DNA of 64,000 bases from NCBI RefSeq assembly GCF_037042905.1, contig NC_087251.1, positions 31,312,001-31,376,000 on the forward strand, read 5' to 3'. Of this stretch, positions 38,001 through 64,000 are shown one piece after another; the stretch's first letter is position 1, and every line of letters starts with the position of its first letter. The translations under genes and the position numbers were made by a program. Under the pieces are notes generated by a model. The model did not search any database. It saw nothing but the letters and a program-made list of their open reading frames with translations, and was not told the DNA's origin. This stretch comes from Lytechinus pictus. Its lineage: Eukaryota.

Positions 38001-41000
38001 AATGTGTGTGTGTGGGAGGGGGCTGAAGCCCCCAATTAGCTTACCGGTTTCGCGGCCCATATATTTATGCTTGGATATTCAGGAAATATTCTCTGCTAGG
38101 GTGTTATATTAAATTTGTGCTGAAGTATTACCCGTGGCCGCAGTATGCAGCATAAGGGGGAGGGGCAGGGGACAGTTTCCCCCACCCAGAGAGTTTGAAA
38201 ATTACTTTTTTTACTGAAAATTTTCACCAAATCAACCAAAATTGTGCATAAAATTTCACTTTAGAAAATACAAAAGAGTCCCAATGACGACCTCTGTCAC
38301 TTCGCTCCTCGCCTTTTACTTTCTTCAACATTAGTGTTTTACACGTGTGCCCCCCGGAAAAAATGTATGTGTATATTACATCATCTCGCCCACTAACTAA
38401 CTCAATAGAGTTATAGGTGGAATGATAGGTATATATACTTATACTTTTTCAAAATATATTGTTCCTTCTTTCTTTCTTCCTTTCTCTCTTTCTTTCCCCA
38501 TTTTCCCAACAACTTTAAAAGTAAAAAAAAAAAAATGGTCGGTCCCACTTGCTCCCTGTGACACCACCTATTCGTTCAGTGGCACCTTTTAAAACGACTT
38601 CTGCTCGCCTTAATCTTAAGACCCTTTCCTATCCGAGATCATAATAGAATGGTGCCCCAATGTAAGGTCATTTTGGCGTCCCCATTTTGTGCCCCTTATT
38701 TTAAGACCAATCTTGCGCCAACTGATTTTCCGGTCAATTTAAGGTATATCCTTTCTAAGTTCAACATCAATTCGACGCCCCAAAATAATATCCATTACTA
38801 AGAATAATTTGACGCCCCTATTTAAATTCAAATTCTAATTTTATGGTGCCCCTAACGTTAAGTCACATTGGTCAATACCAAATCAAATCATATGGTCAAT
38901 TCGACGCGGCTCCTAGAATATTTGCCCCCTTTTCATCTCCATTCTCGTTTTCTCTCGACCTCCCTTGGCGCCCTCTTTTCTCTTACCTGAGAGGCCATGT
39001 GCCATGGCCAGGAACACCCCCCACGGATACGTGCATGGCTACTTTTTCAAAAAAAATCTAGCTGATAAGTTTTATTTTTCAGAAACAATTAGGCCTATGA
39101 TATACAACACGCAAAAATTAATGTCCAGCTTTCAACTCTGATTGGTTCACTGTACAGCGGAAGGAGGGGGGGGGGGGGGGGTCGTTTTGTCAAAACTTCT
39201 ATTCTCGTCGATGCAGAGACCCGGTTGACTATGGGCGTAGAATGTGTCATCAGTTGCCTTCTCAAAAATCTGACAAGCAAGCAGCGGGCTAAAAAGAAAT
39301 ACTAACAATAATAATAATAAAAAAAAAACATATGAAGGGGAGGCGAGCCAATCGTTTGTAACCCTGCATGGACTTTTGGCCTGGATATAAAAGCGAAAAA
39401 AATACAGTAACTGAGATATATACTTAGGCTGGCTCTATTTACCAAATACGGCAGGCTTGACTTTCAGGGGAGGATCCAGCTCCCGCCAGTAGGGGGGGGG
39501 GGGCCTGAAAAATTTTTCACCCATATTCTCCCCGATCGGCTGCTCAAATTTGATTTTTGTTTGTTTCTTTGAAGGGGTTGTCCCAGTGGCGTAATGAGCA
39601 AAAAATTTTGAGGGGGTTCGATACGGCGTATCGCATAAAATTAATAAGAACCTAAACAGGATGCCTATGTAACAAGATAAATACTGCGAGCGCGAAGCGC
39701 GAGCAGTAATTTTTAATATGGGTTCTGGCTTGATTGGAAAGGGGTCTGTTAAGGACGTTTTGCAGTTAGCCATTAAGACAATGCATATTTCAACTATTAA
39801 ATAATGCGAGCACGAAGCGCGACTTGAAATCTTTTTGACATTCCGACCTATAAAATTGACATTCTAAGCACTTTTGGTAACCATTAACGGTATAGGTATA
39901 AAACCAAACAATTGATGTGAGCGCGAAGCACGTGTGGAAAAATTGAGATTTCAGACCTAAAAGTGGGACACTCTATTCATGTTTTGTAAATCTTGAAGAA
40001 GGATGGGTAATTTGGTATCTTCTTATATTAATAATGCGAGCGCAAAGCGCGAGCAATTTTTTTTTGATATTCTGATCTGAAACTGGATAATTTTAGCACG
40101 TTTTGAATAAAGATCAAGCTACGTAACGCAATAAACATGTGTGCGCGTGTTTGAGAGTTAGATAGAATCTGGGCATTCTGAATACATTTCATTTTTTATC
40201 ATGAAAATCAATAATGCGAGCGCGAAGCGCGAGCGGAAAATACTTGATATACCGGAATGAAAAGGATGAATTTAAGCACTATCTAAAGCACTGTGTAGGG
40301 AACTTGTGAAGTAGATGTATATAGATATCACTTAATAAATGATGCGAGGGCGAAACGTGAGCTGATATTTTTGTTATCATTTTCAATTCAATTCTTTATT
40401 CCATTTCCATTAAAAACATAATACAAAGCACGGGCGGAAATCCCAGGGGGACGCGTCCCCCTACCATTTTGGAAAGGGGGGACATAATATTTAATGTCCC
40501 CCCTACTATTTGTGGTCTTTTATTATGGAAAAAAATATATAGTTAAAAATCGAAATTATACACATGTATCCTCGAATTTCGAAATATATATAAACAGATA
40601 GTTTTTGTTAAGAACTTGGATAGGAAAAGAAAAGGCATACCGGCCCGACTATTCTCGAACTCGCATCTAGCCCTATATGCCAGCCAAAGAGTGATGACAT
40701 TGATGACATCGATGGCCATTGTCAATTTCATAACTAATAAAAATGACGAAAAAAAATCGCCCCTGGAAACTTATAAGTAAATTTAGTGTATAGATGGTAG
40801 ACGAGAATGTTCCATACCCCGTAAAAACATACTTTTGTTAAACCAATTCATTTTCCCTTTATTCCAAATTTACTTAGAATATAAGAATATTTTCATTGTT
40901 CGCGTACTCAGTAAAAAGAATAGTTTTCATGAGTTATGATTTATCCTTCGCAGTTAATTTTAACTATGTTTAATCCCCAAAATTTGTTTTTAATTAACGA

Positions 41001-44000
41001 GACTTTTATATTCCATTTTTACCAAAAATCCCTGCCGTACGTGGGAGGGGTTATCATAGGTAGATCCATGGGGCGAAGCGGCGGCCCGCCCCCTTTTGGC
41101 GGCGCAAACTAGGAAGGTGAGGAGAAAAATAAGAAGAAAGATAGGACGAGGAAGAAAATTAAACGATGGAAGGGGATGGGGATAATTGGAAAAAAAGACA
41201 ACTTTCAGGTCATTGTATAAAAATAAAAAATTCGCTCGCGCTTTGCTTTAATACACAGCCATCTCTTTATTTCAAAACGTGCTTAAATTTTTTTCACTTT
41301 TTAGATCGAAATATATAAAATCAAATCATTTATTTAGGAAGATATCCATCGTTTTCATAATTTTGTAGGTTTAAATCTTTAAAAAGAATTAGCTCGCGCT
41401 TTGCGCTCGCATTGTTTATTGAGATAAACTGCTTGTTCTTTATTTCAAAAGTGCTTGAAAGATCTAGTTTTCAGATCAGAATATAAATAAAATTCATTTC
41501 GCGCTTCGCGCTCGCATCAGTAATAATATGGTTGAGTCAGATACTATCCTGTTTATTGCTATAATAAGGTGAAAAGAAGATGACTTTTTCGGTCGGAAAA
41601 TAACAAAAAAACAGGATACGCTTCGCGCTCACATCAATTAAAATTTAGTTAGATAGCTACCCTGTCCCTGATTTCAAAATATGCTACACTGTTAGAAATT
41701 GCCGTAATTTTACGGACAAAATTTAACAGAAATCGTCCGTAAACGATAAAATACGGAATAAAATTGTAAATTTACGGATTTCTACAGAAAATCCGTAAAA
41801 ATTACATAATAATCAGGTAAATGATCAAATTTACAGACGTTTTCTGTAATTGTACAGAAGATCATTATTGAAAGGAGACGTTTACGATACATCTTGTAAA
41901 TTTACTGTAAAGTAGATGTAAGTTTACGGATAAGATTTAACAGATTAATTTGTATTACGTGTAAAGTGCAATTTCTACGGAAAAATTTGTAAAATTTACT
42001 GAAAAATCAGGTTAATGATACATTTTCTGACGTTGTCCGTACCCTGATAGCAGAAACTGGTAAAAATGACGTCATAATTACGTCAGTTTAACGACGAGTG
42101 TCACGTCATTTTGACGTCGTAACATGACGTCTTATTGACGGGATCTTGCACCCGCGAATAACGTCATTATGACGTCGTATATTGACGTCATTATGACGTC
42201 TCCAAGATTGACTACGACGTCTTAATGACGTCTTTGCAACGTTTTTACAACGTTTTCCTGACCAGTATCAAGGGTCAGCTTGACGTCGTGTATTGACGTG
42301 ATTATGACGTCTTCGAGAGTCGACTACGACGTCGTAATGACGTCCGTGCAACCTATTCCTGACCGGTTTTAGACGTCATATTGATGTAATTATGACGTCT
42401 TTAAAAGTCAACTACGACGTCTTAATGACAACTTTGTAACCTATTCCTGACCAGTTTCAGACGTCATATTGCTGTAATTATGACGTCTTTATAAGTCAAC
42501 TACGACGTCTGAATGACGACTTTGAAACATATTGCTGACTAGTAATAGACGTCATATTGACGTCGCATATTGAAATGAATATGACGTCTTTTGGAGTCAA
42601 CTATGGTATTTTAACGTATTCTGACGTGATGACATAAACATTTAAATTAAATTCTACATGTAATGTACACACACCACTTCAAAGACCTTGTCATTGAGGA
42701 TTATCTATTGTTGGTGAATACTGAGGTGGTCTGACAATGTCCAGCATTCCCAGTAACAATATAATGATCCTCCATGCCAGGGCTTGCATAACTCGACTCA
42801 GTCTCAAGAACATGACCCCCCCCCCCCCCAGAAAAAGAATATATACAAAAATGGAAAACGAAATCAAATACAAGTACGCATTTCAATTAGGAAATCATGA
42901 CAAATATTCTATTAATAAATAAAAGTTGCATAACATGATATTACCAGCAAAAAAAAAAGAAAAGAAAAAGTTTAAAAACTCTAAATAGATTTTAAAAAAA
43001 ACACTTTTCTATGAAAATGCAGTATTAGGGTCAAAGGAATGAAATAATTACAATGTTTGTTATACCAATACATAGATACACATTAATACATAACAGAGGC
43101 ATTATGAATAATAATGATCTCGAAGAATATAGCTTTTTTGTTGAAATTGTAATTAAATCTACCTTCAACTTTAGAGAACTATGTAATGTAGGTAAAAATA
43201 TACTGTATGTAAAAAAAAAATACCATGATTTCAGGATTTATGGAAGCTTGCATTTGGGTGAAAGAATCATACATGTACATTAATTCTTATGAAAAGTTTG
43301 TGATTGTACATGTATTACATTATCACTTAGGGGTAAATGCAGCAAACAAATATTTCTTGAGAAAGTCTTTTAAATTAAGGTTAATTGTCAAAATATTGTA
43401 CATGATCTAGATCTGGTACATTAATGTAAACTTGTTTCTTTGTAAAATCATGAATTTTGAACTTAAAATCAATAATTCTGATGATCACTAACACAGAAAA
43501 ACATATGTGAGACAGGACAGTGTATTATAATTGATTTGAAAAATACCTGACATTTGATAGATTTACATGCTTATTTTGCTCATTTCTCAGCAATTACGCA
43601 TTTTCTCCTGAGCTATTTGGCACGTATCTGTTACATACAAACACTTTGCTAGTAATTTTATTTGATTATGTTCGAACTCATTTGAAGATTGTTACTACAA
43701 CTGGTAATTTATCTTTAAAGGGGTACTTGTATATGATTCGGGCTCAACAATTATATCTATGATAAATAAAGTAATTTTTACCATGCAAAATAGTGAAAAT
43801 TTTATCAAAATCAGATAAAAAATAATTACAAAAATATTGGTCATTAACACATGCAAGTAGATAAGTTTATGATATCATGCCCACATTTTTATTGTTCTGT
43901 TACCAGATGAAATAATATTTCATGTGTGTAATAAGTATGTCTTCCAATCCCATGTAGCAAAAAAACCTTCCAGCAATAATCAATACAGGTAAGTCACATC

Positions 44001-44339
44001 AATGCAGTTTACAATCCAATTTAAATACACAATTTCATATATACAAAATAATACGTTTGGGATACATGTACGTGTACGTCTGTATGACATCATCAGCCTG
44101 CTACTTGCACATGCTTAGAGGTCTTTCACCAAAATAATGCAGAGCTTAGAATGCCATACATTACTTTATTACCCCTTGTCCTATTTTGATGAATTTTTCA
44201 GTTTTTGTTAAAAAGTAATCAAAGGCCATATCCATGGTTACCCTTATGCTTGACCTCAATGCCTGTTCTCTTTTACACAACACATTATTTGTGAGATACA
44301 AAGCACTTTCAGATGCCATCCTAGTCAGCACATGAGATT

Positions 44340-44900
44340 AAAAAAAATTAAATTACCAGGCAGTGACAGTGTTGTTCCAAGTCCAGAGCAAAGATGATCA
44401 GGAATGTGGTAGGTCTTCTCAAAGTATATTGATCCAAGGTTGTTGAAAATTGGAGGAGAGGGTGGAGCTAATTCCATGGCCTTGGAGCAGTAGTGGAGAA
44501 AGTTGCATCACCAGTAGCTAATTTGTAGGTGCATCGTAGACTAAGGATCACAAAAATAAAAAGGCAAGTGCGCCTAGAATGAAAATGACGCACAAGGCAT
44601 TCCTTTTAATACATGTAATCTGGACCCCTGTCATTGACTTTGAAAATCAGTAGACGGACACTGATGTTTATGTATATCCTTTCCTTGACTTGCAGCCAGC
44701 GAAGTGGGCGTATGGCAAATGGCACAATAGATGCAGCATTCTGTACTATCTGCAGTCGGTCCAGATCACCCTAATTCAAGCACGAAGAGCTACAATAGTC
44801 AAGTTTAGATTGCGCTAAACCACGGACTGCTGTGCGGCAAGTAGGGGTATACAAGGCACTTCCCATTGGCCTTTATTCTTCCAATCTGTTCGATGTTATA
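44340..44900 (-). mobile_element. Highly decayed L2-like LINE 3' fragment
   Basis: Broken frames give SKLDYCSS, RLQIVQNAA, LRWLQVKERI and GDATFSTTAPR.WN. Confidence 0.65.
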
Positions 44901-45384
44901 CTGGTAGGGAGCAGGTTCCAATAGCGCTATAAAAGGTGTTACGAAACCAGATGACTGGGTACACTTACAGCATCTGCAAAAAAAAAAAACAGAAGAGAAA
45001 CATAAAAACCTTTCCTACAATAACTACTTAATATTCATTAGAAACTAAATAGTTTCAATATCAATTTGCAAACTTTTTAAAAAATGATTCCAAAACAATG
45101 TGGGGTGCGTTACATATTTTATACAGTACTTCAAATATTAACATGTAAAGTCAAGTTGGGGGAGGGGGGGGGGCTTGATGCCCTCAAGATCTACACCTCC
45201 AAACCATCTCTGTAAAGGGAAGGAAATTTTAGAGTAAATTTGTTTGAAAAAAAAAATTTTAATTCATGCTTTTTTATTTGTTTTAAATGGTTATGGGATA
45301 ATTCCATCAGTTTGAATAAGAAATTACAAGTTGCCAATTTCACATAACCAAGATCAATTCTGATGTAATCATAAATGCACATGT

Positions 45385-46093
45385 TAAAAGACTCGGGGGG
45401 CTGATTCAGCCCCCCCCCCTCAACATATTTCGCGATAAATCCGCCGCTCAAATTTTTTTGACCGTGTCGCTTGCTGACTTTTTACTTTCAACTCTCGTGC
45501 AACTTTTGAGACCAAAATTGTGACCCCCGGGTACGTGTTTCCGAAATTACGCAACATTTTGTAAGTGCATGCAGACCCAAAATTATTGAAAAACGTGAAT
45601 TTGTGTACAAATTCAATGCAAATAGTGTTTTTAGCCAAAATTCATAAATGTATCATTATTTTTCCTTTCACTGCTTAAAAGTTAAAATCAATTAATTTTA
45701 TCTTGTTTATGGTAAAAATAAAGTCCCCGACAATTTCCATTGAAAAAACACTAAAAAACAAAAAGTCGTAAAACAAAGAATAGAATACATAAGAAAATAA
45801 ATGTTTTTTTGAAATTTTTGAAAAATAAAAATTGATCAGATGCCTTTCTAGAGTATGTGAAACAAAAATTAGCATTTTAGGGGTATTATTTTATTAATTA
45901 GAGCCAACTTAATGAGCAGTGAGATTTTTCGCAGAATTTGATATTATAGTTTTGTAGATAATGAATGCCATGGGTAACGAGCATGCCAATTTTCGTCGCG
46001 ATCGCCAGCCAAAATCATAAGGGGGGGGGGGCTGAATCAGCCCCCCCCCCAGTCTTCTTAGGTGTCGAAATAGCCCAGTCCATTTAGGGTTAA
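45385..46093. mobile_element. MITE with TTAA flanks and G/C-tract subterminal palindromes
   Basis: GGGGGGCTGA(T/A)TCAGCCCCCC at both ends, right end AGGG-TTAA. The left end appears truncated. Confidence 0.55.
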
Positions 46094-46429
46094 GAATTTT
46101 TTATATTTAGAATACAAAGGCTTACAAATCGGAAAAATTAAATGTTTGCCCAAAAATTATTGAGGGAAAAGTGGATTTTCTAGGGAAATCCATCTTTGTG
46201 TACAAAGTTCTACAGTCAACAGAGACTTGTCTAGGCTCCATGAATGAAAATACAATGTAAAAATGATAAAATAGCATCACAGAGTCCTCTTAGTACAGTT
46301 AGGACCATTGACAGATATAAGGTGCCCCAAGATTGCGCACATCCGAATCTGTGCGATTCTGATAATAGAAGATGCGCAACGACTCAAAACAAAAAATAAA
46401 CTTTACACCTGAAATAGCCTACTGTACTG

Positions 46430-46612
46430 ACTTACCTACTGCCTGATGCCGCTTGGCACGTAGGGCAACAACGAAGGACCTCCACTCCTGGCGGCCGGCG
46501 GTTCTGGGCCTTCTGGAAACTCCCCCGGGCTAGGTCATATTCACTGACTTCATCTCCTCCTCAAGTGTGATGCCAGGACAGGGAGTTTTGGTTCTCCCTC
46601 TCTTTCCCCTGA
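46430..46612 (-). mobile_element. RTE-like LINE 3' end fragment
   Basis: Reads ...EEEMKSVNMT...RQEWRSFVVALRAKRHQ followed by a GTAAGT-type tail, typical of RTE-like C-termini. Confidence 0.65.
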
Positions 46613-47198
46613 AATGTCATAAACAGATCTATTCATCAAAAATCTGACTCAAAATGGTGGGAAAATAATGAATTTAGGGCATTGCCAAGAGTTCCATATG
46701 CACCCCCACTGATATTGAAAATAAAAACACGAAGAAGGATCAGAATAATATATATCGAGCCCATCAGCCCAATATAGAACATATATGATGGGGAAGTGGA
46801 AATACATACTAAAATATGGCTTTATTCCGTCAAATTTTGAGCATGTATAGAGTGTGTGTAATTGTCCATAGACTAAGACATCGGTTTATTTAGTCAGTAA
46901 AGGGTCTGAGTCAAGTCTAGTTGAACTATCGGCTATCTCGCTAGCATAGCAGACTGCAGTTGACTACAGATAAAACGAGGTGAGTTCAAGTTCCAACTAA
47001 GGAAGGTGCCAACATAACGATAACGGTACAAAAAAAAAATTATTGAAAAATCTGAACGAAACGGAATTAATTCTCAACAATCTTTTCATTCTTTTGTTAT
47101 TTTTGGTCATGTTGGTGGGGGGGGGGGGAGGGGTGCATTGGATATGGAACTCTTTCCAGGGCATTTCATGTGACGGCCTCAAAATGCAGCCTCGGTGC

Positions 47199-47308
47199 TA
47201 CCTCGAGCTAAGTTCGTGCAGGCTCCACTCCACTTCACTACCGCTACGAGTGTAGTGTAGCAGCAGTAGTGAAGTGGAGTGGAGCCTGCACGATCTTCGC
47301 TCGAGGTA
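47199..47308. mobile_element. 110-bp MITE with 9-bp duplication (Mutator-like)
   Basis: About 48-bp TIR TACCTCGAGC..AGTTCGTGCAGGCTCCACTCCACTTCACTAC. CCTCGGTGC on both flanks. Confidence 0.9.
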
Positions 47309-50123
47309 CCTCGGTGCTTGCTTTCTTATCAAAATCTTCACACCGTGTGTAACAGGCCTGTGCAAAGTGAATGAGTGCGCAGACATCACACATCGGGCAC
47401 TGCCGCTGCCACTACCACTAATCATTTTGTTCAATCTGAAAATGACCATGACTGGCCAAGTTTTTTTCCAAGAAAATCAATTATTTCTCTCATTTTTTAA
47501 TGAGACTTTTTGCATACTTACTCATAAGAATACAAGGAACATCATCAATTGAAAGATTTTGTAAAATAAAAGGAAATTCACGTTAATTCTGAACTCAAAT
47601 CGTTAGATGTGCAGACTTGGGGTTGGCGATCACCAGCCGGCCGCCAGTGCAGTGGTCCACAGCAGCGAGCGGGCGCTCGGGCCGGGGCGAGCCGGCGGTA
47701 CCAGGATGGGATTGCCAGCGTCATGTCATTTTCAGTGACGAAGCTAGCTGCAAGCCGCGGCATTTCACAAAATACGAAAATAAAATAATAGAAAATGGTT
47801 ATCTAACTTACTGTTTAGCCTACTGCAAATGTCTTCGAAGTCGTTGTCCATATCTGACCCGTATTCTTTAAAAGAATTATTAACGGCCTTCTTCGTCGCA
47901 CTTCTCGATCGAGCTCAATAAACTGCAACTCCAACAACGCAACGGAATTCTTTTCAAATGTTGGCGGTAAGTGCGCATGCACAAGCCTGTCGCCGCGCCG
48001 CCCCCCCCCCTCGGCGAATTTTTATAGGGGTTGAGCTGAGGGGGGTCTAACACCGCGAGTAAGAAAAAAGTTTTTAAAATAGATATACAAACTTCTTTGG
48101 CATAAGAAGCTTCTTCTTCTTCTTCTTGTTTGGTTATGGTTGGCAACCAGTCAAAATGATATTTTTGCCACTGCTTTTGTAGCTTTTTTTTTAAGATTAT
48201 ATAATTTCCTATTTTTTTTGCATGTACTATTTTACTTTTTTTTCTTCTTCTTTTTCCTTTTTTAAAGAGAAAACATGCAGCCTCGCTAATAACATGGCAA
48301 GGTTGAAAAAATAGCAAAATAAAATTGTAAATTTCTTGTTGATTGGCAAATAATTGATGTCATAATCACGTCGTAATTTGGTCAAATGAAAACGCAAATT
48401 TCCTCGTCGTTGATTGGTAAATAAATGATGTCATAATCACGTCCTAATGTGGTCATATAAAAATGCAAATTTACTTGTCGTAGATTGGTCAGTAAATGAC
48501 GTCACAATCACGTCATAATCTGGTCATACAAAAATGCAAAATAAAGTTGTCGTTCAAAGTCGTCAAAATGACGTCGTAACGACGTTGTCCAAATATACTA
48601 TGACGAGATTTACTAGTTTCTGACCAGAAAATGACGTCATCACGACCGTGTCTGCTATCAGGGTAATTGTAGTGAAGATCATTCTTGAAAGGAGACGTTT
48701 AGTGGTTTACGGTACAAATCTTTGTAAATTTACTAGAAAGTAGCTGTAAGTTTACGGACAAGATTGAACAGATTAATTTGTAATACGTGTAAAGTGCAAT
48801 TTCTACGGAAAATTTGTAAAAATTACATAAAAATCAGGTAAATGATCAATTTTACAAACGTTTTGATCCGTATAATTGTACAGAAGATCATTATTGAAAG
48901 GAGACGTTTACAGTACATCTTGTAAATTTACTGTAAAGTAGATGTAAGTTTACGGACAACGTCAGAAAATTTATCATTAACCTGATTTTTCTGTAAATTT
49001 TACAAATTTCCGTAGAAATTCCACTTTACACATATTACAAATAAATCTGTTTATCTTATCCGTAAACTTGAAAGGAGATATTTAGTGGTTTACTGTACAA
49101 ATCTTTGTAAATTTACTAGAAAGTAGCTGTAAATTTACGGTCAAGATTTAACAGATAAAGTGCAATTTCTACGGAAACTTTGTAGAATTTACAGAAAAAT
49201 CAGGTTAATGATAAATTTACTGACGTTGTCCGTAATTGTAGTGAAGATCATTATTGAAAGGAGACGTTTACGATACATCTTGTAAATTTACTGTAAAGTA
49301 GATGTAAGTTTATGGACAAGATTTAACAGATTAATTTGTAATATGTGTAAAGTGCAATTTCTTCGGAAAATTTGTAAAATTTACAGAAAAATCAGGTTAT
49401 ATATGGTAAATTTACTGACGTAAGGAGACGTTTACGATACATCTTTGTAAATTTACTGTAAAGTAGATGTAAGTTTACACGATTTAACAGATTAATTCGT
49501 AATATGTGCAAAGTGCAATTTCTACGGAAACTTTGTAAAATTTACAGAAAAATCAAGTTAATGATAAGTTTTCTTTTTCGAGCATGCGCACTTGAGAAGT
49601 TTGTGAAAAGCCCGCGAAGCAAAGAGAATTTTCCTTGATGTCTTGGATGTGTCAAGTGATCTTCTTGATCAGAAATTCGTAAGTATTTTGCTTTGAATTC
49701 GTAAAAGAAATTTCTGCTATGCTTCTCTGGAATATATTGATACGTTTTATGCAGTTATATGAAATTAATAGTGTTGGTTTTCATGATTACGAACAAGGTT
49801 TTGGCATTGACAAGTCCAGACGATGCAATGTATCGTCGCGTACGCGCTGCTACAGTCCCATTGGTGCATTTGAGTGTTGGATATTTTGACACTGTGGTTG
49901 AACGAATTGAATCGAAGGTGCGAAGCCGTGGGCCAAGCTTGTTTTATGAGCTTCACAAGGATATTTATATTTTGATGCCATTTATATATTCATTTGTATC
50001 TTCATTTGTAAATGTCAAGATGAAAATATAAACCTCAAAATATTAAATTTGTGCAATTAAACTTATTTAAAGGGGTGGATTAGGCCTAGATTAGATCTAA
50101 ATCAAATCAATGTCAATGTCAAT

Positions 50124-51035
50124 GGGTGATTTCAAGTACGGTGTTGAAATCTGGTGTTGGTGTTGTGACAACACCGTACTTGAAATCAGGCTGGTGTTGG
50201 GATTGACCTCGGAAAATATGACGTATTTCCGGCAGTTCGTGTTGAATGTCGTCTGCTGAACCCAGCACTGCGGCTGGTGTTGACGATCTACATGTACGTG
50301 CAATTTCCCCATTCACCAACACCAACCCCCAAGGATTGGGAAAATCATGGTTTCAAGTTCGGTGTTGGTGTTGGCAATCTCAAGCTCGTGAACAGGCGGC
50401 AAACACGATGAAACATCCCCGTAAAATTAGCTTTTACAGTTAAGATGAGCTAGTACTAGTACTAGTAGTAGAACAAATCATTTGAGCTGTAGGGGCCTAT
50501 ATATTTTGATAAAGAATAATGTTCACTCTTTCGAATTCTTGAATTAATTAAAACATTGGTAGGATGGGGGGTTGGGTGTCCGGACACGTAACAGAAATGA
50601 AGCCTTGTTTTTATCTCAGGAATAAACCAAAAATATAGGTTGAATAGTTTTTTTTCACCATCAATATTTGTTCTTTATAATATTTTCTTATATTCTGTGC
50701 TAAAAAGAATTAAAGACATTGCTTGTAAACTTTTCAAAATTGAGAGTAAAAGTCATGTGTCCGGACACCCAACCCGTCCGGACACACAACCACTGGGTAT
50801 ACATGTATTCTGTACGATGAGAATTTAATGCATTTCTTTCCGATTTCATTTTCGTCGTCGAGACTTCTCGCGTGAAGTTGAGATGATTTAGCAGCGCAGC
50901 GCAGAGGCGTGACGTCATGTGCTATCGATAACGCAATTGGTATCATTCCTCTGAACCCAGTCCCAGCTCGGTGTTGGAGCTCGGTTCAGCGGCCTTTTTA
51001 CGCTCTCAACACCAACACCGAACTTGAAATCACCC
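50124..51035. mobile_element. 912-bp non-autonomous element with GGG termini and 3-bp AAT duplication (PIF/Harbinger-related)
   Basis: TIR GGGTGATTTCAAGT.CGGTGTTG, AAT at 50121-50123 and 51036-51038, internal GGTGTTG repeats. Confidence 0.8.
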
Positions 51036-51065
51036 AATGTCAACTACAGTTAGTTAGATCTAGTA

Positions 51066-51588
51066 TACCTCGAGCGAAGTTCGTGCAGGCTCCACTCCAC
51101 TTCACTACCGCTACACTACACTCCACCTACCCAAACTTCGGGACGGTGATCTCGATCGGATATTCCGAGTGACAAAGGTGGGGTGGCCGATGGAAATGTT
51201 ATTTATTGTAAAAATCATAACAAAAAATATAAAGAGAAAGAAAAATGGCTTAATTTCTTACTCTTCACCCGTATTTCACTCCGTGTCCATCCTCTGGTTA
51301 TCCTCTAAATTGTTGATTTTGAGCCAGTATCTATTTCCTCACACGTCACTATTCATGGCCGATTTAAAAACATCGCATGCGATCGGTCGCAGGTCAAACA
51401 GCATAAATATTTATATTATTATTGGATGGTTCAGAAAATACCAAAAATATTCTACGAGTATGGGAAAATGTTTTTTTTCCTCATTTTATTTTTTTCTATA
51501 TTTTTTACAATAAATAACATTTCCATCCCACCTTTGTCACTAGCGGTAGTGAAGTGGAGTGGATCCTGCACGAACTTCGCTCGAGGTA
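51066..51588. mobile_element. 523-bp MITE with 9-bp duplication, same family as 47199
   Basis: Same TIR, GATCTAGTA on both flanks, a second internal inverted repeat at 51169-51540. Confidence 0.9.
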
Positions 51589-51700
51589 GATCTAGTAATG
51601 ACTTAGTGCTGGCTAGCGACCGACGGGTTTCCATTCTCAGCCATTCACTGATAATTCAGTTAAGACAGTGTGTTCCATGTGTGTATGTGTGATGCGAAGC

Positions 51701-51794
51701 TACCTCAGCTCAAGCGATGTAGACGACCTTGTTGGAGCGTACAGTGTAGCGGTAGTGAAGTGGAGTGGAGCCTGCACGAACATCGCTTTAGGTA
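51701..51794. mobile_element. 94-bp asymmetric MITE with 9-bp duplication, same family
   Basis: Right TIR is intact, the left end is TACCT plus diverged sequence. ATGCGAAGC on both flanks. Confidence 0.8.
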
Positions 51795-52715
51795 ATGCGA
51801 AGCGTGCTGTACATGTGTCCTCTGGACGTGTGGGCATTGGTTTAGTGACAGTGTGCATGTGATTGTGAAGGGTTGAAGCCCGGGTTGAAGTTTCTTACAG
51901 CTCTGTGGGTTTATCTATAATTAAATGATTCTCTTTTCAAGCTTAAATTTTTATAATGATGATTGCTACATTCCAATTATTTGATTAAATTGTTTGTTTT
52001 AGAACAGGTCTTTTATTTTGTCCTCAGTCTATTTCTCCCATTACATATCAATTAAAGAGAGTCTTCACTTGTGTTTCATTAAATTATTATACAATGTCCA
52101 CTGTAATGAAAATGGAAACATGCCGGTCAAATGAAAGTGCAATATAAGTGGAAACATGCTGGTCTATTGACTATATGTTGACCATATAGTAGAAACCAAA
52201 ATTTGTTCTCAGCTGTAATTATTCTTCTATGGGAACTTGCTTCTCATAGATCAAATAAAATTTCCGAAGACCCCATATAATTTTGTACTATTTGGTGCAT
52301 TTAAAGAGGAGAAAGAAATGCTTTTTTTTTTCAATTTGCCTAAATTGCATTTAAAAATATACGTTTCTTTTGCTTTCGGCACAGGCCAATTTTTAGAGGC
52401 TGAAATATTAAAGAGTTGATTACTTAAATTTCGTTCTAAAATCTTTTTCATATCACTTGCAAATAGAGAAAATATAGCGCCCCCCCCAAAAAAAACTTTA
52501 ATTTTTAAAGGCATCTCGCACAAATGATTACAATGTTTTTGTTTTATTTATCATTCACTATGAGATCTGTATAAAGTGATAAACCAATGAATTATTTTTA
52601 TATGTATATGTTTCCAATTATTTGCCTACCGGTATTTATTAAAAAATAATGTTTGTGTTGTTATTTGACAATTGTTTCACAGAATTACGTCGTCGGTTGA
52701 CATCTACCTATACCC

Positions 52716-55700
52716 ATGGATTATCTCCATCACCTTCACAACCTTGAATTGCTAAGAGAGGTATGATTGATAAATTTGGTTTACATTGTTTTAATTTGTT
52801 TAAAAGTATTATTGAAATGATTTGATGAGATAACAAAAATGAAAACTTGAAATAACATTTTGAATGTAATTTTTGTTAATCTTGGGAAGACAATTAAGAT
52901 TGCAGTTATTATGTTGGTAGATGTGTAATCAAATCTACATGCACATGTTCACTGTTTGGAACGTTTATAAAGATCACAAAATAAAAGAATTAAAAATAAT
53001 ATTCAACTCTTCTGCATACATGTACAGCTACCTTTGCCAAGACCACGTCGTGGGCTACGGGATGCTAGAAATCCATCGGAATCGTACGAGGATGGGCCAT
53101 TTCAAGATCGGTATCGACTGTCAAAAGAAACCGTCATTTACATCATCAACATGCTGGAAGCCGAATTGAAGAGGGACACACAGAGGAATGATCCACTTCC
53201 CGTTTATTTGCAGGTGTTGACGGCTCTCCGTTTTCATGCAGTGGGTGAGTAATTGAATTAAATGATTATTGAATGTTTCTGGGCACTGTTAAATCTATTT
53301 GACTGAGGTTGTTTCTATTAATTTTAGGACTCCAGACAAAGTTGATGATGATGACAATATCTAGAAATCAGAGAGGGATCACATAAGTAAGAGTATCATT
53401 TAAGCAAACAGTCAAGTACCTATGAATTGCATGCTTAAAAATTCCAAAACTACCACAGCAGGAGTGAAGCTCTGCTGTTTCTGCTGTTAGAACTGTTATG
53501 TCAGGTTAGAGTTATAAATTTGTCATTAACCCTAAATTGGCAGATCACCCCCACCCCCCCCCCCCGAAACTTGGCTGTGTTGCGATGAAAAGCTATGAAA
53601 TTTGGCACATAGATAACAACTCGAGATGAACATACACACAAAAAACTAGAGCTGCAATCGTATCAGAACAATGTGCATGCATTGACGCCTGTGATTTTAT
53701 GGAGGGCAAGAAACAGAAGGAGATAAAGAGAAAACTCCTGAGGATATACATTTTCAAAATATTAAGAGGGCGCTATTTTTATAGGCAATGGTCACTGATG
53801 CGTAAAAAAAACATTTTGCATATGAGGGATGATGCCATTAGCAAACCCTAAAAAAGTGATACCAAGATAAATGGAAACAAGGAAGTGATGGCCATTTTAC
53901 TGTTTTCCAACTTTTTAATAGAGAGCGCTATTTCTTAAAGGTAATGGTCACTGATGTGCGTTAAAAAACATGGATTATGAGGGATGATGCCATAAGCATA
54001 CCCTGAAAATATGAGACCGAAATAAATGAAAACTAGGAACTTATCGTCATGGCCATTATAATATTTCTTTAGTTTGCAATAGAGGGCGCTATTTTTGAAG
54101 ATAATGGTCATTGATGTGTGAAATGAAAAAAAAAACAATTGAATTTGGACTATCATAAGTCAACCCTGAAAATATGAAACTGAAATAAATGAAAACAAGT
54201 AAGTGATGGCCATTTTACTATTTTTGCAATAGAGGGCGCTATTTCTAAAGGTAATGGTCACTGATGCGTAAAAACAGATGAATACGGAAGCATGTTCCCA
54301 AATCAGACCAAAATGAATAAAAACAAGGAAGTTACGGCCATTTTATGATTTTCCTACTTTACATTTCAATAAATATTAATTTTTTAAATGTAGACTATTT
54401 CGGATTTGAATTAAGGGCATGAAGACGGCATTTTCAAGGACAAGTCATATTTTCATATGAAGAGCAACTCTTAAACAATCTACAGCAATTTGTTAGAAGT
54501 GTGTAGCATGCAGGATAAGAGAGTAAGGATGGGATTAGGAATAGTATGCAAATGGACTAGAAATTTACAAAATGGCGCCTGGATGGTCATGCATTGCCCC
54601 TGTCCGTCCGCCCCCCCCCCCCACTTGGTTTCCGCGCAATAAGTAAAAAAATATGTAATGGATAAAAAAAAATTGGTGTGTAGGTATAGGACACCAAAAT
54701 ACAGGCTCAGTTCGAATTCGGAGTCCGCAGGTCAAAGGTCACAGCTCATTAGATATGCGAGTTGGTTTCCACATGATTATCATAAGTTCCAAATGAATAT
54801 TTAGAAATGTTTTTTTATTTGAATTATAATCATGTGAATGATCACACATAGACATCTACTATGTATGGGAAATACCATGTATGTTGTGCGCCATGTTATA
54901 TAGTGGTACACTTTGGGGGTACTGACCAATTTTTTTGAACTTTTATCAATAGATGTGCAAAAACATCAAGGTAAAAAGTCAAAAGCACGGGGCAGAAAAT
55001 AAACATTATTCAATAGCTGTTTTTTAAGTCAGTACTGCTGCTATATCGAATCGCGTATGATGGCGACACTGCAAGAGGCCTTCCACTTGTTAAAATGAAT
55101 TGCAGAAAATTGTCTGATATTTGTAAAAGATGAATATTCTTATGAAATATGTGCTTAATTTTTTTTATCATCAGAAGTATCATCTGTATGTGTAATGAAA
55201 TGTTTTAAAATTACCTCGAAACAATGACCTATCAACCATATGGTTTGTTTGATTTTACAGGATCATTTCAAAAGATGCATGGTGATGAGGCAGCAATATC
55301 ACAGTCATCAATGTGTCGAATCATCAAAGATGTGTCAGAAGCTATAGCAAGAAGGAAAAGGCAATACATGAAGTTTCCTTCGACAAGAGAAGAAGTTGAA
55401 GCAACTCAGCGACAGTTCTTCCAGTACTGCAGATTTCCAGGAGTGATAGGTGCAATTGATGGGACACATGTCTACATCAGGAGCCCTGGTGGGGATCAGG
55501 CAATATACTTCCTCAACAGGAAGAATAGATACTCGATCAATGTTCAGGTTAGATTAATTATACCCTTTCTTAGGCCCTTTTCACAATTAGTGCTGAGACT
55601 GCTTGCAACCTTTGTGATTGTGTGCGACATATATTGTGATCAAATGATTGCAATTGCTAATACAAGCAAATGTGAAAGCCACTTAAATTACTATAACTAG

Positions 55701-56193
55701 AACAATGTACTATTTTGTATAAAGTTTGGCCAAAAAAAAGAATGTGACATTAATTTTCTTTCCTAGGATTTCCTATCACTTCAGTTTCATTTATAGTAAT
55801 TATTCGATTCGTATTTGATTGGGCAATTTTTAAAATGAGTAGTTAATTCTGTAGCATATATATATATATTTTTTTTGTGCAAGTACTGAGCAATTGAAGC
55901 AGTGGAAGGGTGGGGTGATTGTTGGATAAATCAACCTAACATGGAAAGCACACCAATAATTTTTATGTGCATGCATGTTAAAATTGCATTCCAAATATGT
56001 GATAAACTTGCAAAACTCAATTGTTGTGTGCTCCCATTGGATGTCCCAAAGAAAATTGAAAATTAAGTGCCCAGAACGATATAGAGACAGTTATGAATGT
56101 AAGATTTGATATTCCTCTTTTGTCTTCTGCTAGGTTGTTTGTGATCAGGCTGAGAAAATAACAAGCATCGTTGCCAGATGGCCTGGCAGCACA
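52716..56193 (+). pseudogene. Spliced PIF/Harbinger-type (HARBI1-like, DDE_Tnp_4) transposase, 3'-truncated. Exons 52716-52760, 53028-53244, 55261-55547, 56134-about 56193
   Basis: FQDRYRLSKET, LQVLTALRFHAVGSFQ, ISQSSMCRII, FPGVIGAIDGTHV, NRKNRYSINVQVVCD, VARWPGST. About 203 codons are open across three GT-AG introns. The second Asp and the Glu motifs were not found downstream. Confidence 0.88.
53527..55091. repeat. Composite intronic repeat: about 145-bp tandem units plus a HINE-like 3' end
   Basis: AGAGGGCGCTATTT...GGTCACTGATG repeated about 4 times (53766-54270). The end GAGGCCTTCCACTTGT matches the end of the element at 26909. Confidence 0.55.
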
Positions 56194-56300
56194 CCTAACT
56201 CCGCAACCGTAAGTCACTTTTCAACCAAACTTGGATGGTAGATGTACTTAGGCGACCTGCATATTATGCTGCAGTCGGAGGTCACATGGTAAGGTCAAAG

Positions 56301-56870
56301 TGTTCAAAGTTTTTGTAGAAATGTACCAAACCCGACGGTGCTCTCACTCCATGATGTGTCACTGCATCGTAGCAATCCAGTCGGATTTGAAATGGTCTAC
56401 ACACGTTGAATATATGGTCAAGAGCGCAAATAGTCGTTTATATGTTCTTCGCACTTTGAAATATCATAGTCTGTAATTTCAGGACCTTATAGTTGTATAT
56501 ACTAGTTTCGTGAGACCAGTTGTTGAATATGCTGTACCTGTATGGTCAGGAGCACTAACAAAACAACAAGTACAAGTCATCGAACGTATTCAGAAACGTG
56601 CCCTTAGAATCATTTTTGGAGCAGCATATTCTTCATATGAGCATGCTTTACTCCAGTCAGAACTGATGTCTCTTGAAGATAGATGGATCAAACTCTTTGT
56701 CTTGCGTTTGCGAAGTCTATGCAAATCCCCACGTCTAAACTGTATCACCTTCTACCTCAAAATAGGACTTGTCAATATCAGACTAGAAGCTTGGCCGGAA
56801 CAGTAGAGATGCGATGTCGAACTTCACGATATAGAAATAGCCCCTTGCCCTCGTTGATTCGGCACCTTAA
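56301..56870 (+). mobile_element. 5'-truncated CR1/L2-group LINE ORF2 C-terminus, inserted in a HINE-like repeat (about 56190-56300 and 58505-58680)
   Basis: SDLKWSTHVEY...RPVVEYAVPVW...IERIQKRALRII...CRTSRYRNS, with a stop and a frameshift. (GAATT)n tails at about 58025-58040 and 58490-58504. Confidence 0.85.
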
Positions 56871-56871
56871 A

Positions 56872-57265
56872 GAGAAATTCCAGTAGTTGCAGTAAACACT
56901 GATTTCATGAGAAAGTCTGTAAAACAAGGCTTAATTGTCAGTATATCATCGAGGATCTAGATCTGGTACAGTTACATAAACTGAACTTTGTGAAATCTTG
57001 AAATCTACGCTGAAAAATGTTCAGGCTGAAGATCCCCAACACAGATAAGCGCACGTGGGACAGTGTATAATTATTGCTTCGAATGTCGGGCCCGACGCTC
57101 TACCCGAATCCTGTGCTTATTTGCTGATTTCTCAGCAATTACACAATTTCTTCCAGAATCCTTTGGCACATATGTTTTATTTATACAAACAGACACTTTG
57201 GTGGTCATTTCATTGGATTCTGTACGAACTCATTTTGATATCGTTACCAAAACTAGCATTTACCT
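56872..57265. mobile_element. Kolobok-type MITE interrupting the LINE
   Basis: TTAA flanks, AG...CT termini. A related decayed copy lies at about 43330-43718. Confidence 0.6.
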
Positions 57266-59999
57266 TTAACTCTAAAAGAATTGATTACAAGGAGTAGTTT
57301 TTTTTGTGTATATATCTTCCCCTATCGTTACATGTATAATAATATCAAACTACGAATGGCTGAGAATTAAAGAACTCATCATTCATTGGACTCTCAAAAT
57401 GTGATATCATTAAGAGATTGTTTTTTATAAAATGCAGATTACATACTAATTCTAATGTTGAGTTCTCTTTATGTTGGCGAACTCAAGTTTCATTTCATTT
57501 CATTTTACTTTGTTAATCAAAATATTTTTCTTTCATATGAGCAATTATTCACTGATATCTAGTCGTAAACTTAATATCTGAATTGAAGTCATAAAAATTG
57601 CCAAAATATGTATTATTGCAGCATATTAGATTATCGTTTTTTCCCAAAGTAATGTAATTCAGAATTTAATATGTAAATGTGTTTATTAATTTCTCTTTGT
57701 ATATATGTTTAATCGTTTTATGATTTCTGTATACAGTGAATACTGAATCATTTATTTTTATTATTATTTATTTATGTTTATTTGTTTATTTTTTATTCAT
57801 TTTATATATATTGTTTATTTCTTAATTTTATCTTATTTTTTATTCATAAAATTTACTTATAAAAGGGGGCCTTCACCCTACAAGCTCTGCTTTTTAGTTG
57901 GTCTCCTTCCCTTTCGATTTCATGGTATTATTGTATTATAAAAAAATGATTTAAATGTTATATTTTGTTATAATGTATATTGAACTATCATTGTAAATGT
58001 AAAAAGATTGAAAGAGAAAATAATTGAATTGAATTGAATTGCTTCTTCACCCTTTTCTCTCTGTTTCCCTTCCACCATCAATTTCTTCTCTTCTCTCTCT
58101 CTCTCTCTGCCTCTCTTCTATAATAAGTAATAATATCCAAGTCCTTTGGAAGCGCATAGAGACATTATTCATAATTGTGATATGCGCTATACAAGAACTG
58201 TTTATTATTATTATTCTCTCTTCCACTATTTCTATTCCTTTCTGCTTTCCAATTCATTTCCTCTATCCACTCATATTTACATGTATTTTGAATATTTTTC
58301 AATTTTTTTTATTGATCAGTGAGTATCAATTTAAATTTATTTATGATATACTTTGTTACATATGTCTATATTGAAATTTGTTCGTAGTACTATAAGTTTT
58401 TTTACCTTGTTATTGATGATTTTGTTTGAAATGTAAATTTTCGCAATTCGGCTTTTGCCGCAAAGAAAGGATTTTTAATAAACCATTTTGAATTGAATTG
58501 AATTTACAGGTCAACATTAAAGTTTATGTGCAAGGCTCTATGACAAGTGTTATTCCATCCCAGTCATTTCACAATGAAGTTTCAATACAATTATGTTGTG
58601 TGCCCTCGCAAATCACGATATTTCTGGTTATTTTCATGAGTGGGCGAGACACAATCACTGTTGCCATGTTTTATTCTAGAAATAGTAAGCTTAGTATGAA
58701 AAAAATTATTGAAAAAAGCTGGCCCGATTTGTCCAGGTCAGAAAAGGGCAACACAATTTTTGTTCAGGCCTTAAGTGAATGCATTCATACAATCTACCAT
58801 GTGTTTGGGAGTACATGTTTAAATAGCAAATCAGCGTTCCTATTGTAAGGTATCTACTGATTAAAAAATATCTGTAAAAAATTTAAGAATTCTGTAAACT
58901 TGTTTTTTTACGGAAATGTGTAAATTTACATGGGAATTTTGTAAAAGTACGGTAATTTTACGGAAAAGGAATCCGTAAAATTACGGATTAAAAAAAAAAA
59001 TTCCGGCAGCAAAATTTCCGGACAAATTTTTTTTTTCCGTTAATTATTTATACGGAATCATGTTAATTCACGTAAATTTTCTGTAAAATTTCCGTAAATA
59101 ATATCCATATTTTACATGGGAATTTGTAAAAGTACGGTAATTTTACGGATTCCTTTTCCGTAAAATTACGGACAAAAAAAAAAATTCCGGCAGCAAAATT
59201 TCCGGACAATTATTTTTTTTCCGTTAATTATTTATACGGAAACATGTTAATTCACGTAAATTTTCTGTAAAATTTCCGTACATAAAATCCGTATTTTACA
59301 TGGGAATTTTGTAAAAGTACGGTAATTTTACGGAAAAGGAATCCGTAAAATTACGGACAAAAAAAAAAAATTCCGGCAGCAAAATTTCCGGACAAATTTT
59401 TTTTTTCCGTTAATTATTTATACGGAATCATGTTAATTTATGTAAATTTTCTGTAAAGTTTCCGTAAATAAAGTCCGTATTTTCAAGAATTGTAATTTAC
59501 GGAATCTTGTATATTTTACAGAACTTTTCCATAAATTACCACTTTCTGTAAATTTACGGAAAAAAAAAAAAAGTCCGGAAATTCTGCTGCCGGACTTTTT
59601 CCGTTAAAAAACGGAAATTTTTCTAACAGTGTAATGATACCAATTTTTAGGCCGGAAATGACATATCTTCAGCACACACTTCGTGCTCGAATCTAATATT
59701 GTTTAGTAGAATTCCTATCCTGTTCATGATTTGAAAAAGTGTTACGATTGTCCAGTTTTTAGGTTGCAAAATCAAAAACTCTCAGCTCGCGCTTCGCGCT
59801 CGCATTATTTATTGAGGCCTTTCATCTTTAGTCAGGAATACCTCCCCTCTTCGAAATGTATGTATATATATATATATATACATGTATGTGTGTGTGTGTG
59901 ATGGTGTGTGTGTGTTTGAATTAGTAACTCTGTAGACCATAAAAAACGGAAAACTCAATTGTGTCCCCCCTGCCTTTAAGGAGAGATTTCCGCCCATGG

Positions 60000-61190: not shown

Positions 61191-62321
61191 TGACCTATAT
61201 GACCTGGACATTCTAGGCCTGGGCCTAAGGAAATTTTGTCATCATAAGAAAATGATGACTATCTTCCTATTCCTCTTCCTAATATAATAGCGCGATATGA
61301 AACTTGTCGATATTCCTTTCTGAAAAAGGGACAATTTAGTTATTAGGAATTCATGAAAATTTTATTATCATATCTATGAATGTAATAAGCCTAATGAGTG
61401 AGTAAAATTTGTTGACATTGAGGCCTGAAAACTTGATATTTTAAGCACTTTTGTAATCATGAATAGGCTTTATGAGTTAATATATTTTCAACAATAATGC
61501 GAGCGCAAATCGCGAGACGAAATTTTTGATAAACTGTCATAAAAGGGGGCTTTTAAGTAGTTTGTTATAGAATTGATATATCAAGAATCTTAACAAAGAC
61601 AATATGTAGGCCTTCTTGGCAAATCAAAATAAAATGCGAGCGCACACCGAAAAAAGCTGCAAATGATATTCACACGATAAAACGGACATTTTATAGAGCA
61701 CTTTAAAAAAAAATCAATTTGTAAATCATGAATATGCTTTGTATATTGACTTCAAAACTTGATGTTTTAAGCTACATATCAGCCTATTGAGCAAGATATG
61801 TATCTCATAGAACAGGCTATTCAATTCAATTCAATTCAATTTATTTTTCATTCTTCAACATAATATAAATAATTACATGATAAATCAATTCAATTTAAAT
61901 AAAAGCATGAACAAATTCTACATTGAATAAATAATATACATATTCAATAAGTGATTCAAATATAAATTAACATGCATGTCAAATTTAAATCAATATAATC
62001 AAATATAATTAAATCAATATAATCATATATCATGAGAAGAATGGAGGGGTCCACTGAAAAGCAAAGCTTGTAAAATGTGAACCCCTCAAAAAGTTAGGAT
62101 AGAAAGAATATTGAAATCTTAGTAAAACAGCTGGGGTAATATAATAATATCCAAGTCCTTTGGAAGCGCATAGAGACCCCGGGATAGAGACATTATTCAT
62201 AATATTGTGATATGCGCTATACAAGAACTGTTTATTATTATTATTATTATTTTCAGGCTCTTTTTGGAGATTAATCTTCGATGGAAACGCACATTGACAA
62301 AGTACACAAATACTCTCTATA

Positions 62322-63281
62322 CAGTGCGTATAAAAAATCGGGACAGTTTTGAAAAGTCTGTAAAAAAATTGTTTCATAATATTATATCTATATTTTGATG
62401 TTAATAGATGCTCTGAGACCTTATGTGAAACAAATTATGTTATGGTACCTATATAAAAGACATGAATCCTATTTTCAAGGGGTTATTGAATCCTTCACCA
62501 AGTTTAATTATGTGCTTGACAGGACAAACAGGAGAGGGTTCATGTCTTTCAATGGCAATGGTGTATTGAGTCAATTTTGAAGGGGCAGATCGGGTAAAAT
62601 GTATTAAAAAGTTGTGAAGCGAGCAAGCAAAAATTTCCACTTTTTATTAAAATATCAAATTTTGTGATTTTATAATATTCAGAAAATAATATCATATTTC
62701 CCTTTTTATGTTTTCTGTTATTTTCCTTTTCACTTTTTTTTCTTGTTCATGATTTTTTTTATTTGGGGGCGGGGGGGGGGGGAGTAACCCGAGCCCCCAC
62801 CCATCAGTATGCCACTGTTCAAAGGCATCATAACCTTTGTAGCACACAATGAAAGGATTTGAAAAAAACACGCTCTCCCATACTTCGGTTAAAAAAAATT
62901 GTTCTTGCCTAATAAAGGAATATTCAAAGCTAAAAGAGAACATATTAAAAAGAAACAACAACAACAGAAATATTCAAGCAGATAAGTAGATTTAGAAATC
63001 AATTTTCACCGAATAATTCGAAAATTATGGCAAAGATAATGAATAGGTTAAGAGGATATATGCTGATTAGCAAGAAGTCTGACCATCATTTTATGCCATT
63101 TTGGCGCAAGCCTCCTTTTTAACCCCAGACAAAAACATTCCGTGTTCGCTGAAGCATGAACGAAACTAAATTATTTTAATGGCATTTGAAGGATAAGACT
63201 TCAGAGCACCTATTGACACTAAAATATAGAGATAAAAATTATAGACTTTTCAAATCTGTCCCGTTTTTTTTATACGCACTG
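62322..63281. mobile_element. Tc1/mariner-type non-autonomous element
   Basis: TA-CAGTGCGTATAAAAAA..GGGACAG.TTTGAAAAGTCT inverted termini followed by TA. Confidence 0.85.
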
Positions 63282-64000
63282 TATAGGCCTACCCCCGCTC
63301 TCCCAAAAGTGATTTGTTTTAACATGCACCGATTTCCCGGCAAACACATATAGGCCTATTTCTCTCATTATTGTTGTTAAAATAAAAAAAAATTCTTCTC
63401 AGCTTAAAGAGTTAATATTCATAAATATACTCAACACTCTCCATGCAGTGCCTCCGTATTGATAGGGCCAATGACAGGTTTTGAGCTATTGAGCTCCTGT
63501 TATACTACAAAGTCCATTTGCGCATTTTCACGGTAACTGACGTTACAAGGCACAATTTTACAGGGGCGGAAATCTCTCCCAAAAGGTAGGGGGGACACAG
63601 GGGCGGATCCAGCCTTCGCCAATAGGGGGGGGGGCGGAAATTTGTTTCAGCCAAATTTTCCCCGATCAGCAGCTCGAAGATGAGTTTTGTTTGTTTCTTT
63701 GAAGGGGTAGTCCTCATTAGTCACTTCTTAGCTTTATTCTTATACATTAATATATAATATCATCATCCTTATTCCATGTATTTATATGATTCGAGCGCGA
63801 AGCGCGAGCTAATTTTTTTGGAATTTTTTTGTATTTTTTCATAAAATTTGAACTGATTCTGGGCAATGTTTATCCTGAAAAAGATGTGTATGCAACTTAA
63901 TAATTACTACAAACGCAAAGCGCGAACAGAAATGAACTGATGGAAAAGATACCTGTTAAAGTAGCATTTAACAATCAAATAATGCGAGCGCGAAGGGCGA

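Follow-up and report, generated by a model that had tools for sequence, protein, structure and literature searches.

The element at the locus

This study concerns a large DNA transposon of the sea urchin Lytechinus pictus. It lies in a stretch of 64,000 nucleotides (G000 C7:31312001-31376000), referred to here as the window, and belongs to a family with CACTG ends that we name E1. Its shell is of the EnSpm type and encloses a gene of the PIF/Harbinger superfamily. We conclude with high confidence that E1 is a non-autonomous animal En/Spm (CMC/CMCT) element with a captured, dead Harbinger half, which is likely moved in trans by a 907-aa transposase.

The window copy of E1 spans 41687..59631 and measures 17,945 bp. 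CACTGTTAGAAA begins at 41687, its reverse complement finishes at 59631, and TA flanks both. The terminal inverted repeat (TIR) pair and the TA flanks described in an earlier sequence-only reading of this DNA are thus confirmed, and the subterminal arrays that it reported are seen at both ends, with a right arm of ~1.1 kb. In most E1 copies the left TIR is CACTGTTAAAAA, which has one mismatch to the right TIR. The element had been described as an 18-kb transposon. Its ends are real, but the 18 kb are private to the window copy, in a family of ~11 kb, because an unrelated element, E2 (42042-48663), sits in its left array.

E2 is missing from 10/10 other E1 copies compared, and an empty site in another E1 copy shows that its insertion duplicated TA. 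The E2 family is also young and has at least 40 scored genomic copies per end, copy sizes of 6.5-14.5 kb and GACGTC-rich arrays. Nine copies were examined, and a 2-bp target-site duplication (TSD) is present in seven of the eight other copies with both ends. No transposase remnant was found when we searched E2 for one.

The site into which E1 inserted is an array of GCGAGCGCGAAGCGCGAG units (39677-41686, 59632-59811 and 61490-64000), likely another repeat family. Small palindromic inserts with CCTCGAGCGAAGTTCGTGCAGG arms, resembling miniature inverted-repeat transposable elements, occur in E2 and E1 (47183-47324, 51064-51600 and 51740-51795).

Table 1 Features of the E1 copy in the window (positions counted from the first letter of the window).
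Feature	Position	Strand	Remarks
Left 2-bp TSD, TA	41685..41686		
Left TIR of E1, CACTGTTAGAAA	41687..41698	+	Also in the 32.6-kb transposase-coding relative
Left subterminal array, first part	41687..42041	+	96% identity to the transposase-coding relative
E2, nested non-coding CCC-ended element, TIR CCCTGATAGCAGA	42042..48663 (6,622 bp)		TA duplicated on either side (42040-42041, 48664-48665)
Left subterminal array, second part	48664..49571	+	Array of ~1.24 kb if uninterrupted
Captured Harbinger segment begins here, with a subterminal/promoter motif and a first exon that is likely non-coding; the TIR of the donor is apparently lost	49572..49678	+	Motif GTGGTTTAA..GCGCATGCGC in an older copy and in GGCC-ended families
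Harbinger fragment exon, ATG at 52716	52683..52760	+	RNA reads across joint 52758-53026
Harbinger fragment exon, N-terminal region	53028..53244	+	RNA reads across joint 53243-55260
Harbinger fragment exon, first catalytic D (AIDGTH)	55261..55547	+	
Last, truncated exon	56134..56241	+	Homology up to ~56193 (ARWPGST), then repeat read-through and stop; second D and E absent
2.2-kb insert, presumably the degenerate reverse-transcriptase 3' part of a long interspersed nuclear element (LINE), GAATT-type tail; embedded in a repeat unit of GGTCAAAGGTCA type	56299..58507	+	Common to young copies
Segment 98% identical to the transposase-coding relative, whose sequence resumes there	58502..58801	+	Right junction within shared interspersed repeat
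Right subterminal array, 186-bp unit x3	58925..59619	+	97% identity to the relative
Right TIR, TTTCTAACAGTG	59620..59631	-	
Right 2-bp TSD, TA	59632..59633		

A young family with a two-base target duplication

In the 812 Mb of genome searched, each E1 end is represented by at least 40 scored copies at 93-100% identity. E1 is therefore a real and young family, and its ends are not a product of chance. Ten further copies, read whole, are 11.0-13.3 kb long and colinear with the window copy except for 42042-48663. They are 97-99% identical to it across most of the interior, and each has its own 2-bp duplication.

A matching 2-bp TSD is present at 31 of 34 paired E1 ends, namely 23 TA, four TG and one each of TT, CA, CG and AA. 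This count takes in all copies with both ends read (the window copy, 1/1, and sets with 10/10, 2/3, 3/3 and 15/17) and excludes copies with a single located end, for example those at C22:79855, C38, C28 and C5:55403212; two copies on C23 have common flanks and are probably one insertion that was duplicated. One E1 copy is inserted in the intron of another, and the window supplies the empty site with a single TG. The target duplication of E1 is a general 2-bp TSD with a TA bias. The TA duplication first described holds for the window copy but not for the whole family, in which 8 of the 31 matching TSDs are other dinucleotides.

What do these ends enclose? The Harbinger exon with the first catalytic aspartate, hereafter the D1 exon, lies inside 33 of 35 paired E1 intervals. 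The two without it are long copies that carry a CMC-type open reading frame (ORF).

A CMC transposase behind the same ends

The two paired copies that lack the Harbinger gene fragment, or stump, measure 32.6 kb (C5:56191176-56223748) and 40.3 kb (C5:43934438-43974731). Both have E1 termini and TA duplications. The earlier reading had suggested looking for a CMC transposase between such ends, and in these two long copies there is one. The 32.6-kb relative contains an intact 907-aa ORF as well as the exons of a second gene (at C5:56.212 Mb), which has no Pfam match and is probably a TnpA-like helper. Four near-identical copies of the ORF exist, and the three other than the one at C5:56.2 Mb are frameshifted or contain stops. 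The window copy and the relative have their ends alone in common (41687-42041, 96%; 48663-49571, 89%; 58502-58801, 98%; 58925-59631, 97%). CMC remnants were sought in the window and in 11 cargo-bearing copies, and none was found.

The nature of the 907-aa ORF emerges from several lines of comparison. Among 8000 candidates it has 795 homologues at E<=0.001, and none of the 120 listed is named as a transposase. In 84 aligned homologues D373, D466, C487xxC490, H698xxxH702 and E722 are conserved at 95% or more; by this alignment D373, D466 and E722 would have catalytic roles. Pfam Transposase_21 is matched by 12 of 55 homologues at E<=0.05, the best at 1.3e-4, below the curated cut-off. A profile of the ORF aligns over the catalytic core to 5/5 Transposase_21 ORFs of the genome (E 1.6e-6 to 2.6e-3, scaled for 1000 sequences) and to 0/5 Harbinger controls. 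Its neighbours in the Atlas are Transposase_21 and Plavaka clusters (0.91-0.94). Among 997 chains pre-ranked by Foldseek, the predicted model (mean predicted local distance difference test score 88.9) matches RAG1 best (Z 20.4, root-mean-square deviation 5.2, 468 aligned), and also ProtoRAG and Transib. When solved structures were searched by sequence with the CMC alignment, the best 60 of 93 matches were zinc fingers alone. Together, these comparisons show the 907-aa ORF to be a CMC/EnSpm-type transposase with a predicted RAG1/Transib fold.

The C-terminal domain of the model (residues 764-897; C5:56.205 Mb) resembles DNMT1 BAH1 (Z 9-9.7 over ~110 residues) and is a possible chromatin-reading module.

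Two observations suggest that this transposase may move E1 in trans: the 96-97% identity of the ends and the clustering of ends near the relative. At least 11 of 40 listed left ends lie within 0.82 Mb (C5:55.37-56.19 Mb), around two copies of the CMC ORF. The region C5:55.3-56.23 Mb is a dense E1 nest in which several copies are inserted in each other and in a second ORF-bearing copy, and it looks like the result of local hopping from a master.

The cargo is a truncated Harbinger gene

The coding exons of the window copy (52716-52760, 53028-53244, 55261-55547 and 56134-56241) yield exactly the 218-aa public protein P0121, which is labelled 'putative nuclease HARBI1 [Lytechinus pictus]' and carries PF13359. 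Set against its 350-aa relative P0126, the stump keeps the first D (AIDGTH, 152), loses homology at about residue 203 and is devoid of the motifs LGDSGY (229, with the second D, or D2) and IERTFG (266, with the E). In an older form of E1 (C22:79855 and C38) the exon is present as far as LLGDS, yet this form also ends in the next intron.

This truncation is common to the family. None of 55 genomic matches to the E-bearing exon falls within any of the 35 paired E1 intervals, and no complete Harbinger gene was found when the CACTG-ended copies were searched for one. The earlier reading had asked whether intact transposase copies always lie between these ends; no E1 copy has the E exon, and the closest whole relatives are GGCC-ended. 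What had been taken for a spliced PIF/Harbinger transposase is indeed a spliced Harbinger-type gene (52716-56238), but it encodes an incomplete enzyme that has neither the second D nor the E. The reported lack of a Harbinger TIR pair and of a Myb/SANT partner stands: there is no GGCC-type TIR pair within the window element, and four partner-gene queries gave no match in any E1 copy.

Is the stump maintained? Its copies differ by 98 distinct changes, of which 24 are synonymous against 26.3 expected under neutrality (p=0.65), in a count of 18-22 records per exon that were de-duplicated by flanks only, with each site and base counted once against the majority and no tree. The changes include six stops, and 17 exon records have indels. 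The Harbinger stump decays neutrally. The translation of its exon 4 is identical in 12 genomic copies. Three raw-read RNA runs under the same species label, ~6% of which was read, reveal low spliced transcription of the E1 family, although the reads are not assignable to the window copy. Two reads cover each of two joints in one run, a second run adds one read pair and the third gives none. None of the listed holders of the stretch is recorded as RNA, which speaks neither for nor against transcription. A non-coding first exon likely lies at 49572..49678, judged from its sequence; its splice is not seen in these reads.

The transposase had also been considered the only recognisable gene, but a LINE reverse-transcriptase fragment is present as well (56252-56806). 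The insert with this LINE 3' fragment occurs in young E1 copies and not in the older form. We take it to be a LINE by the likeness of its motifs, with no Pfam hit; the single short stump exons, too, gave no family when searched against Pfam.

Tandem arrays are also found elsewhere in the window, with 139 bp units at 22297-22713 and units of 164-192 bp at 27114-28017. The latter array resembles the GGTCAAAGGTCA-type repeat of the E1 right junction, a repeat that is abundant in RNA.

Origin of the cargo

The nearest whole relatives of the stump are 82, 79 and 78% identical to it in the D1 exon. They start with GGCCCGAATTCACAAA or GGCCGGTATTCTCAAA and possess the exons that the stump is missing. 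Two copies of Harbinger family B were read end to end and run from GGCCC to GGGCC over 16.4 and 17.2 kb. Their 3-bp duplications are AAA and CTT, in place of the TWA duplications that had been envisaged around other copies of the transposase. Close to their right end, the opposite strand carries a Myb-like gene, and the ORF used as query is PF13873. Family B comprises eight near-identical, intron-rich two-gene copies of 16-17 kb (C9:17.047-17.064 Mb and seven other loci), much larger than typical Harbingers, and is probably active.

A quick maximum-likelihood tree of 33 homologues, without labelled ISL2EU, Spy, Nuwa, Pangu or PHISTA references, places the stump in a sea-urchin clade with a support of 100, where families G, D and B bracket it. 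Its branch is longer than that of its S. purpuratus sister. The older E1 form keeps GTGGTTTAA..GCGCATGCGC directly after the shell array, and the same motif is found 150-220 bp inside the TIR of families B and G. Going by this motif, the donor lost its left TIR at capture, which would account both for the missing TIR pair and for the position of the apparent promoter right next to the array. By homology, these comparisons show that the cargo descends from a Harbinger/HARBI1-type transposase of GGCC-ended two-gene elements. A locus at C7:11.6 Mb, tried as a closer donor, turned out to be a derivative of family B.

Proposed capture and amplification, and alternative explanations

How could half of a Harbinger gene come to travel in an En/Spm shell? 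We propose that, in an ancestral shell, the original two-gene interior was replaced by the 5' part of a GGCC-ended Harbinger, an event that would have happened once. The left junction would lie in the shell array just inside the Harbinger TIR, and the right one in a repeat common to the donor intron and the relative, which suggests that template switching during repair, or recombination, joined them. The second D may have been lost afterwards in a microhomology deletion. A LINE piece would then have inserted, and the resulting version would have been amplified to ~30 copies, with the insertion of E2 into the window copy as the last step. Maize TnpD/TnpA is a two-protein system whose second protein binds the arrays. 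By analogy, the CMC transposase would move E1 and the second CMC protein would bind its arrays. The same product could have come about from a Harbinger that first landed in the shell and whose two ends were then removed by flanking deletions, or from one that was copied in as a half.

E1 is thus a case of ordinary capture and amplification, not a hybrid transposon lineage. Of the views that the sequence-only reading had entertained, the EnSpm-like shell with a captured foreign transposase gene gains support from the CMC ORF within the same ends and from the truncated cargo. A simple nested insertion that later decayed captures part of the picture, in that the relatives of the transposase are GGCC-ended and elements with the same ends exist without it, but the gene appears to have been captured once and amplified to ~33 copies.

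Several points weigh against our interpretation. There is no matching duplication at 3 of the 34 paired E1 ends. The 907-aa ORF itself has no direct match to Pfam Transposase_21, and in the three RNA runs it is hardly expressed. E1 could also owe its movement to a different enzyme, since numerous further CMC ORFs, 28-51% identical, are present in the genome. The mechanism at the capture junctions is one that we infer from sequence alone. We found no intact Harbinger that would be a nearer donor than family B, the closest whole families having 78-82% identity in protein, and the relics at C5:24.80 Mb and C31:0.507 Mb, both decayed, have neither kind of end and no E exon.

Could a Harbinger-fold enzyme itself recognise CACTG ends and make TA duplications, like the fungal PHISTA? 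Such a lineage would fit the Harbinger exon in 33 of 35 paired copies, its splicing in RNA and the prevalence of TA among the duplications (23/31), and PHIS elements with TA TSDs are described for rust fungi (PMC12730594). We regard it as very improbable. The E exon is in no copy (0/55 matches), young copies have lost D2 as well, and the gene decays neutrally. The TSD is not TA-only, the closest whole relatives have GGCC ends and 3-bp TSDs, and long copies enclose a CMC-type ORF between the same ends. The unrecognised lineage suggested by the earlier reading is therefore not supported. Still less credible, to the point of being negligible, is that the ends belong to two different elements or pair by chance around unrelated inserts. 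The several nested inserts of the window copy and the three paired ends elsewhere without a matching TSD might be cited for such a pairing, but it is refuted by ten colinear copies at 97-99% identity with a 2-bp duplication each.

A further alternative accepts a shell moved by CMC enzymes and sees in the 218-aa stump, as protein or RNA, a useful passenger whose effect favoured its spread, perhaps a dominant-negative or a silencing trigger against active Harbinger family B. The coding version (two paired copies, four ORF copies) is far rarer than the cargo version (33 copies), promoter-side sequence and splice sites are kept, and there are a few spliced reads and 12 copies with an identical exon-4 translation. 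However, shorter non-autonomous derivatives are commonly more numerous than their masters, the changes fit neutrality (p=0.65) and include stops and indels, and expression is very low, with two reads per joint in one run and one read pair in another. We thus consider a passenger of this kind unlikely, and favour capture of a dead Harbinger half by an En/Spm shell.

Comparison with known elements

The criteria of CACTA/EnSpm elements describe E1 well: it has CAC..GTG termini with a short TIR, a 2-bp TSD and subterminal arrays. A TSD of 2-3 bp is typical of this class, and one of 2 bp of its animal members. Animal CACTA/EnSpm elements have CAC..GTG or CCC ends, a short TIR, a 2-bp TSD and subterminal repeats, and may likewise lack a transposase of their own and depend on an autonomous relative with a near-identical TIR (PMC13189230, PMC1636069). 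SmTRC1, an animal CACTA-like element, is given 2-bp direct repeats and CCC ends (PMC1636069), and the zebrafish CMC-EnSpm elements EnSpm-N49/N49B a CACTC TIR, a CA duplication and an autonomous partner with a near-identical TIR (PMC13189230). In contrast to them, the interior of E1 is the 5' half of another superfamily's transposase, its ends are CACTG and its copies span 11-40 kb.

The CMC/CMCT clade is characterised by a C(2)C and an H(3-4)H motif, both situated between D2 and E (PMC12730594). CMCT elements, including ESTA, resemble E1 and its coding relative in their CA..TG termini, a TSD of 2-5 bp, C(2)C and H(3-4)H, and a RAG1-like fold. E1 differs from ESTA in its any-dinucleotide TSD with a TA bias (8 of 31 are other dinucleotides, against the TA-only TSD of ESTA), in its animal host and in its cargo, a dead transposase half and not a TET/JBP gene. 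The same paper documents the passive transfer of genes between DNA-transposon superfamilies (PMC12730594).

With PIF/Harbinger elements E1 shares the ancestry of its cargo, which is 81-82% identical in amino acids to family B in the best exon. The donor-like families have TIRs that start with G, 3-bp TSDs and a Myb/SANT second gene, and the definition of PIF/Harbinger in PMC4482050 fits family B, save that its 3-bp TSD is not TWA. In E1 itself there is neither a Harbinger TIR, which would start with A or G, nor a 3-bp (TWA) TSD, and a Myb gene and a complete DDE are missing too. The idea of a Harbinger enzyme with a TA duplication has its nearest precedent in PHISTA of rust fungi, which was compared by its description. 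Like E1 it has a TA duplication and a Harbinger-class gene with no Myb partner (PMC12730594). Unlike E1 it has a whole transposase and a TA-only TSD, whereas the gene of E1 is a stump and its TSD variable. Since PHISTA and ESTA exemplify TA-duplicating groups and the passage of genes, neither the ends of E1 nor the capture is new in kind. In the literature that we searched, we found no account of the E1 family, nor of Harbinger cargo in a CACTA shell of sea urchins.

Implications

With these results an apparent hybrid between superfamilies is removed, and the significance of the finding is modest. It also points to a trap, as automated tools would call ~30 copies Harbinger although their ends and likely enzyme are En/Spm. 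What remains is a well-preserved capture series, consisting of a coding relative, an older copy with D2 and a younger copy without it. In addition, a model sea urchin offers one intact CMC transposase together with young substrates that match it. If the stump were a useful passenger after all, one transposon superfamily would be spreading a repressor of another, the still-intact family B.

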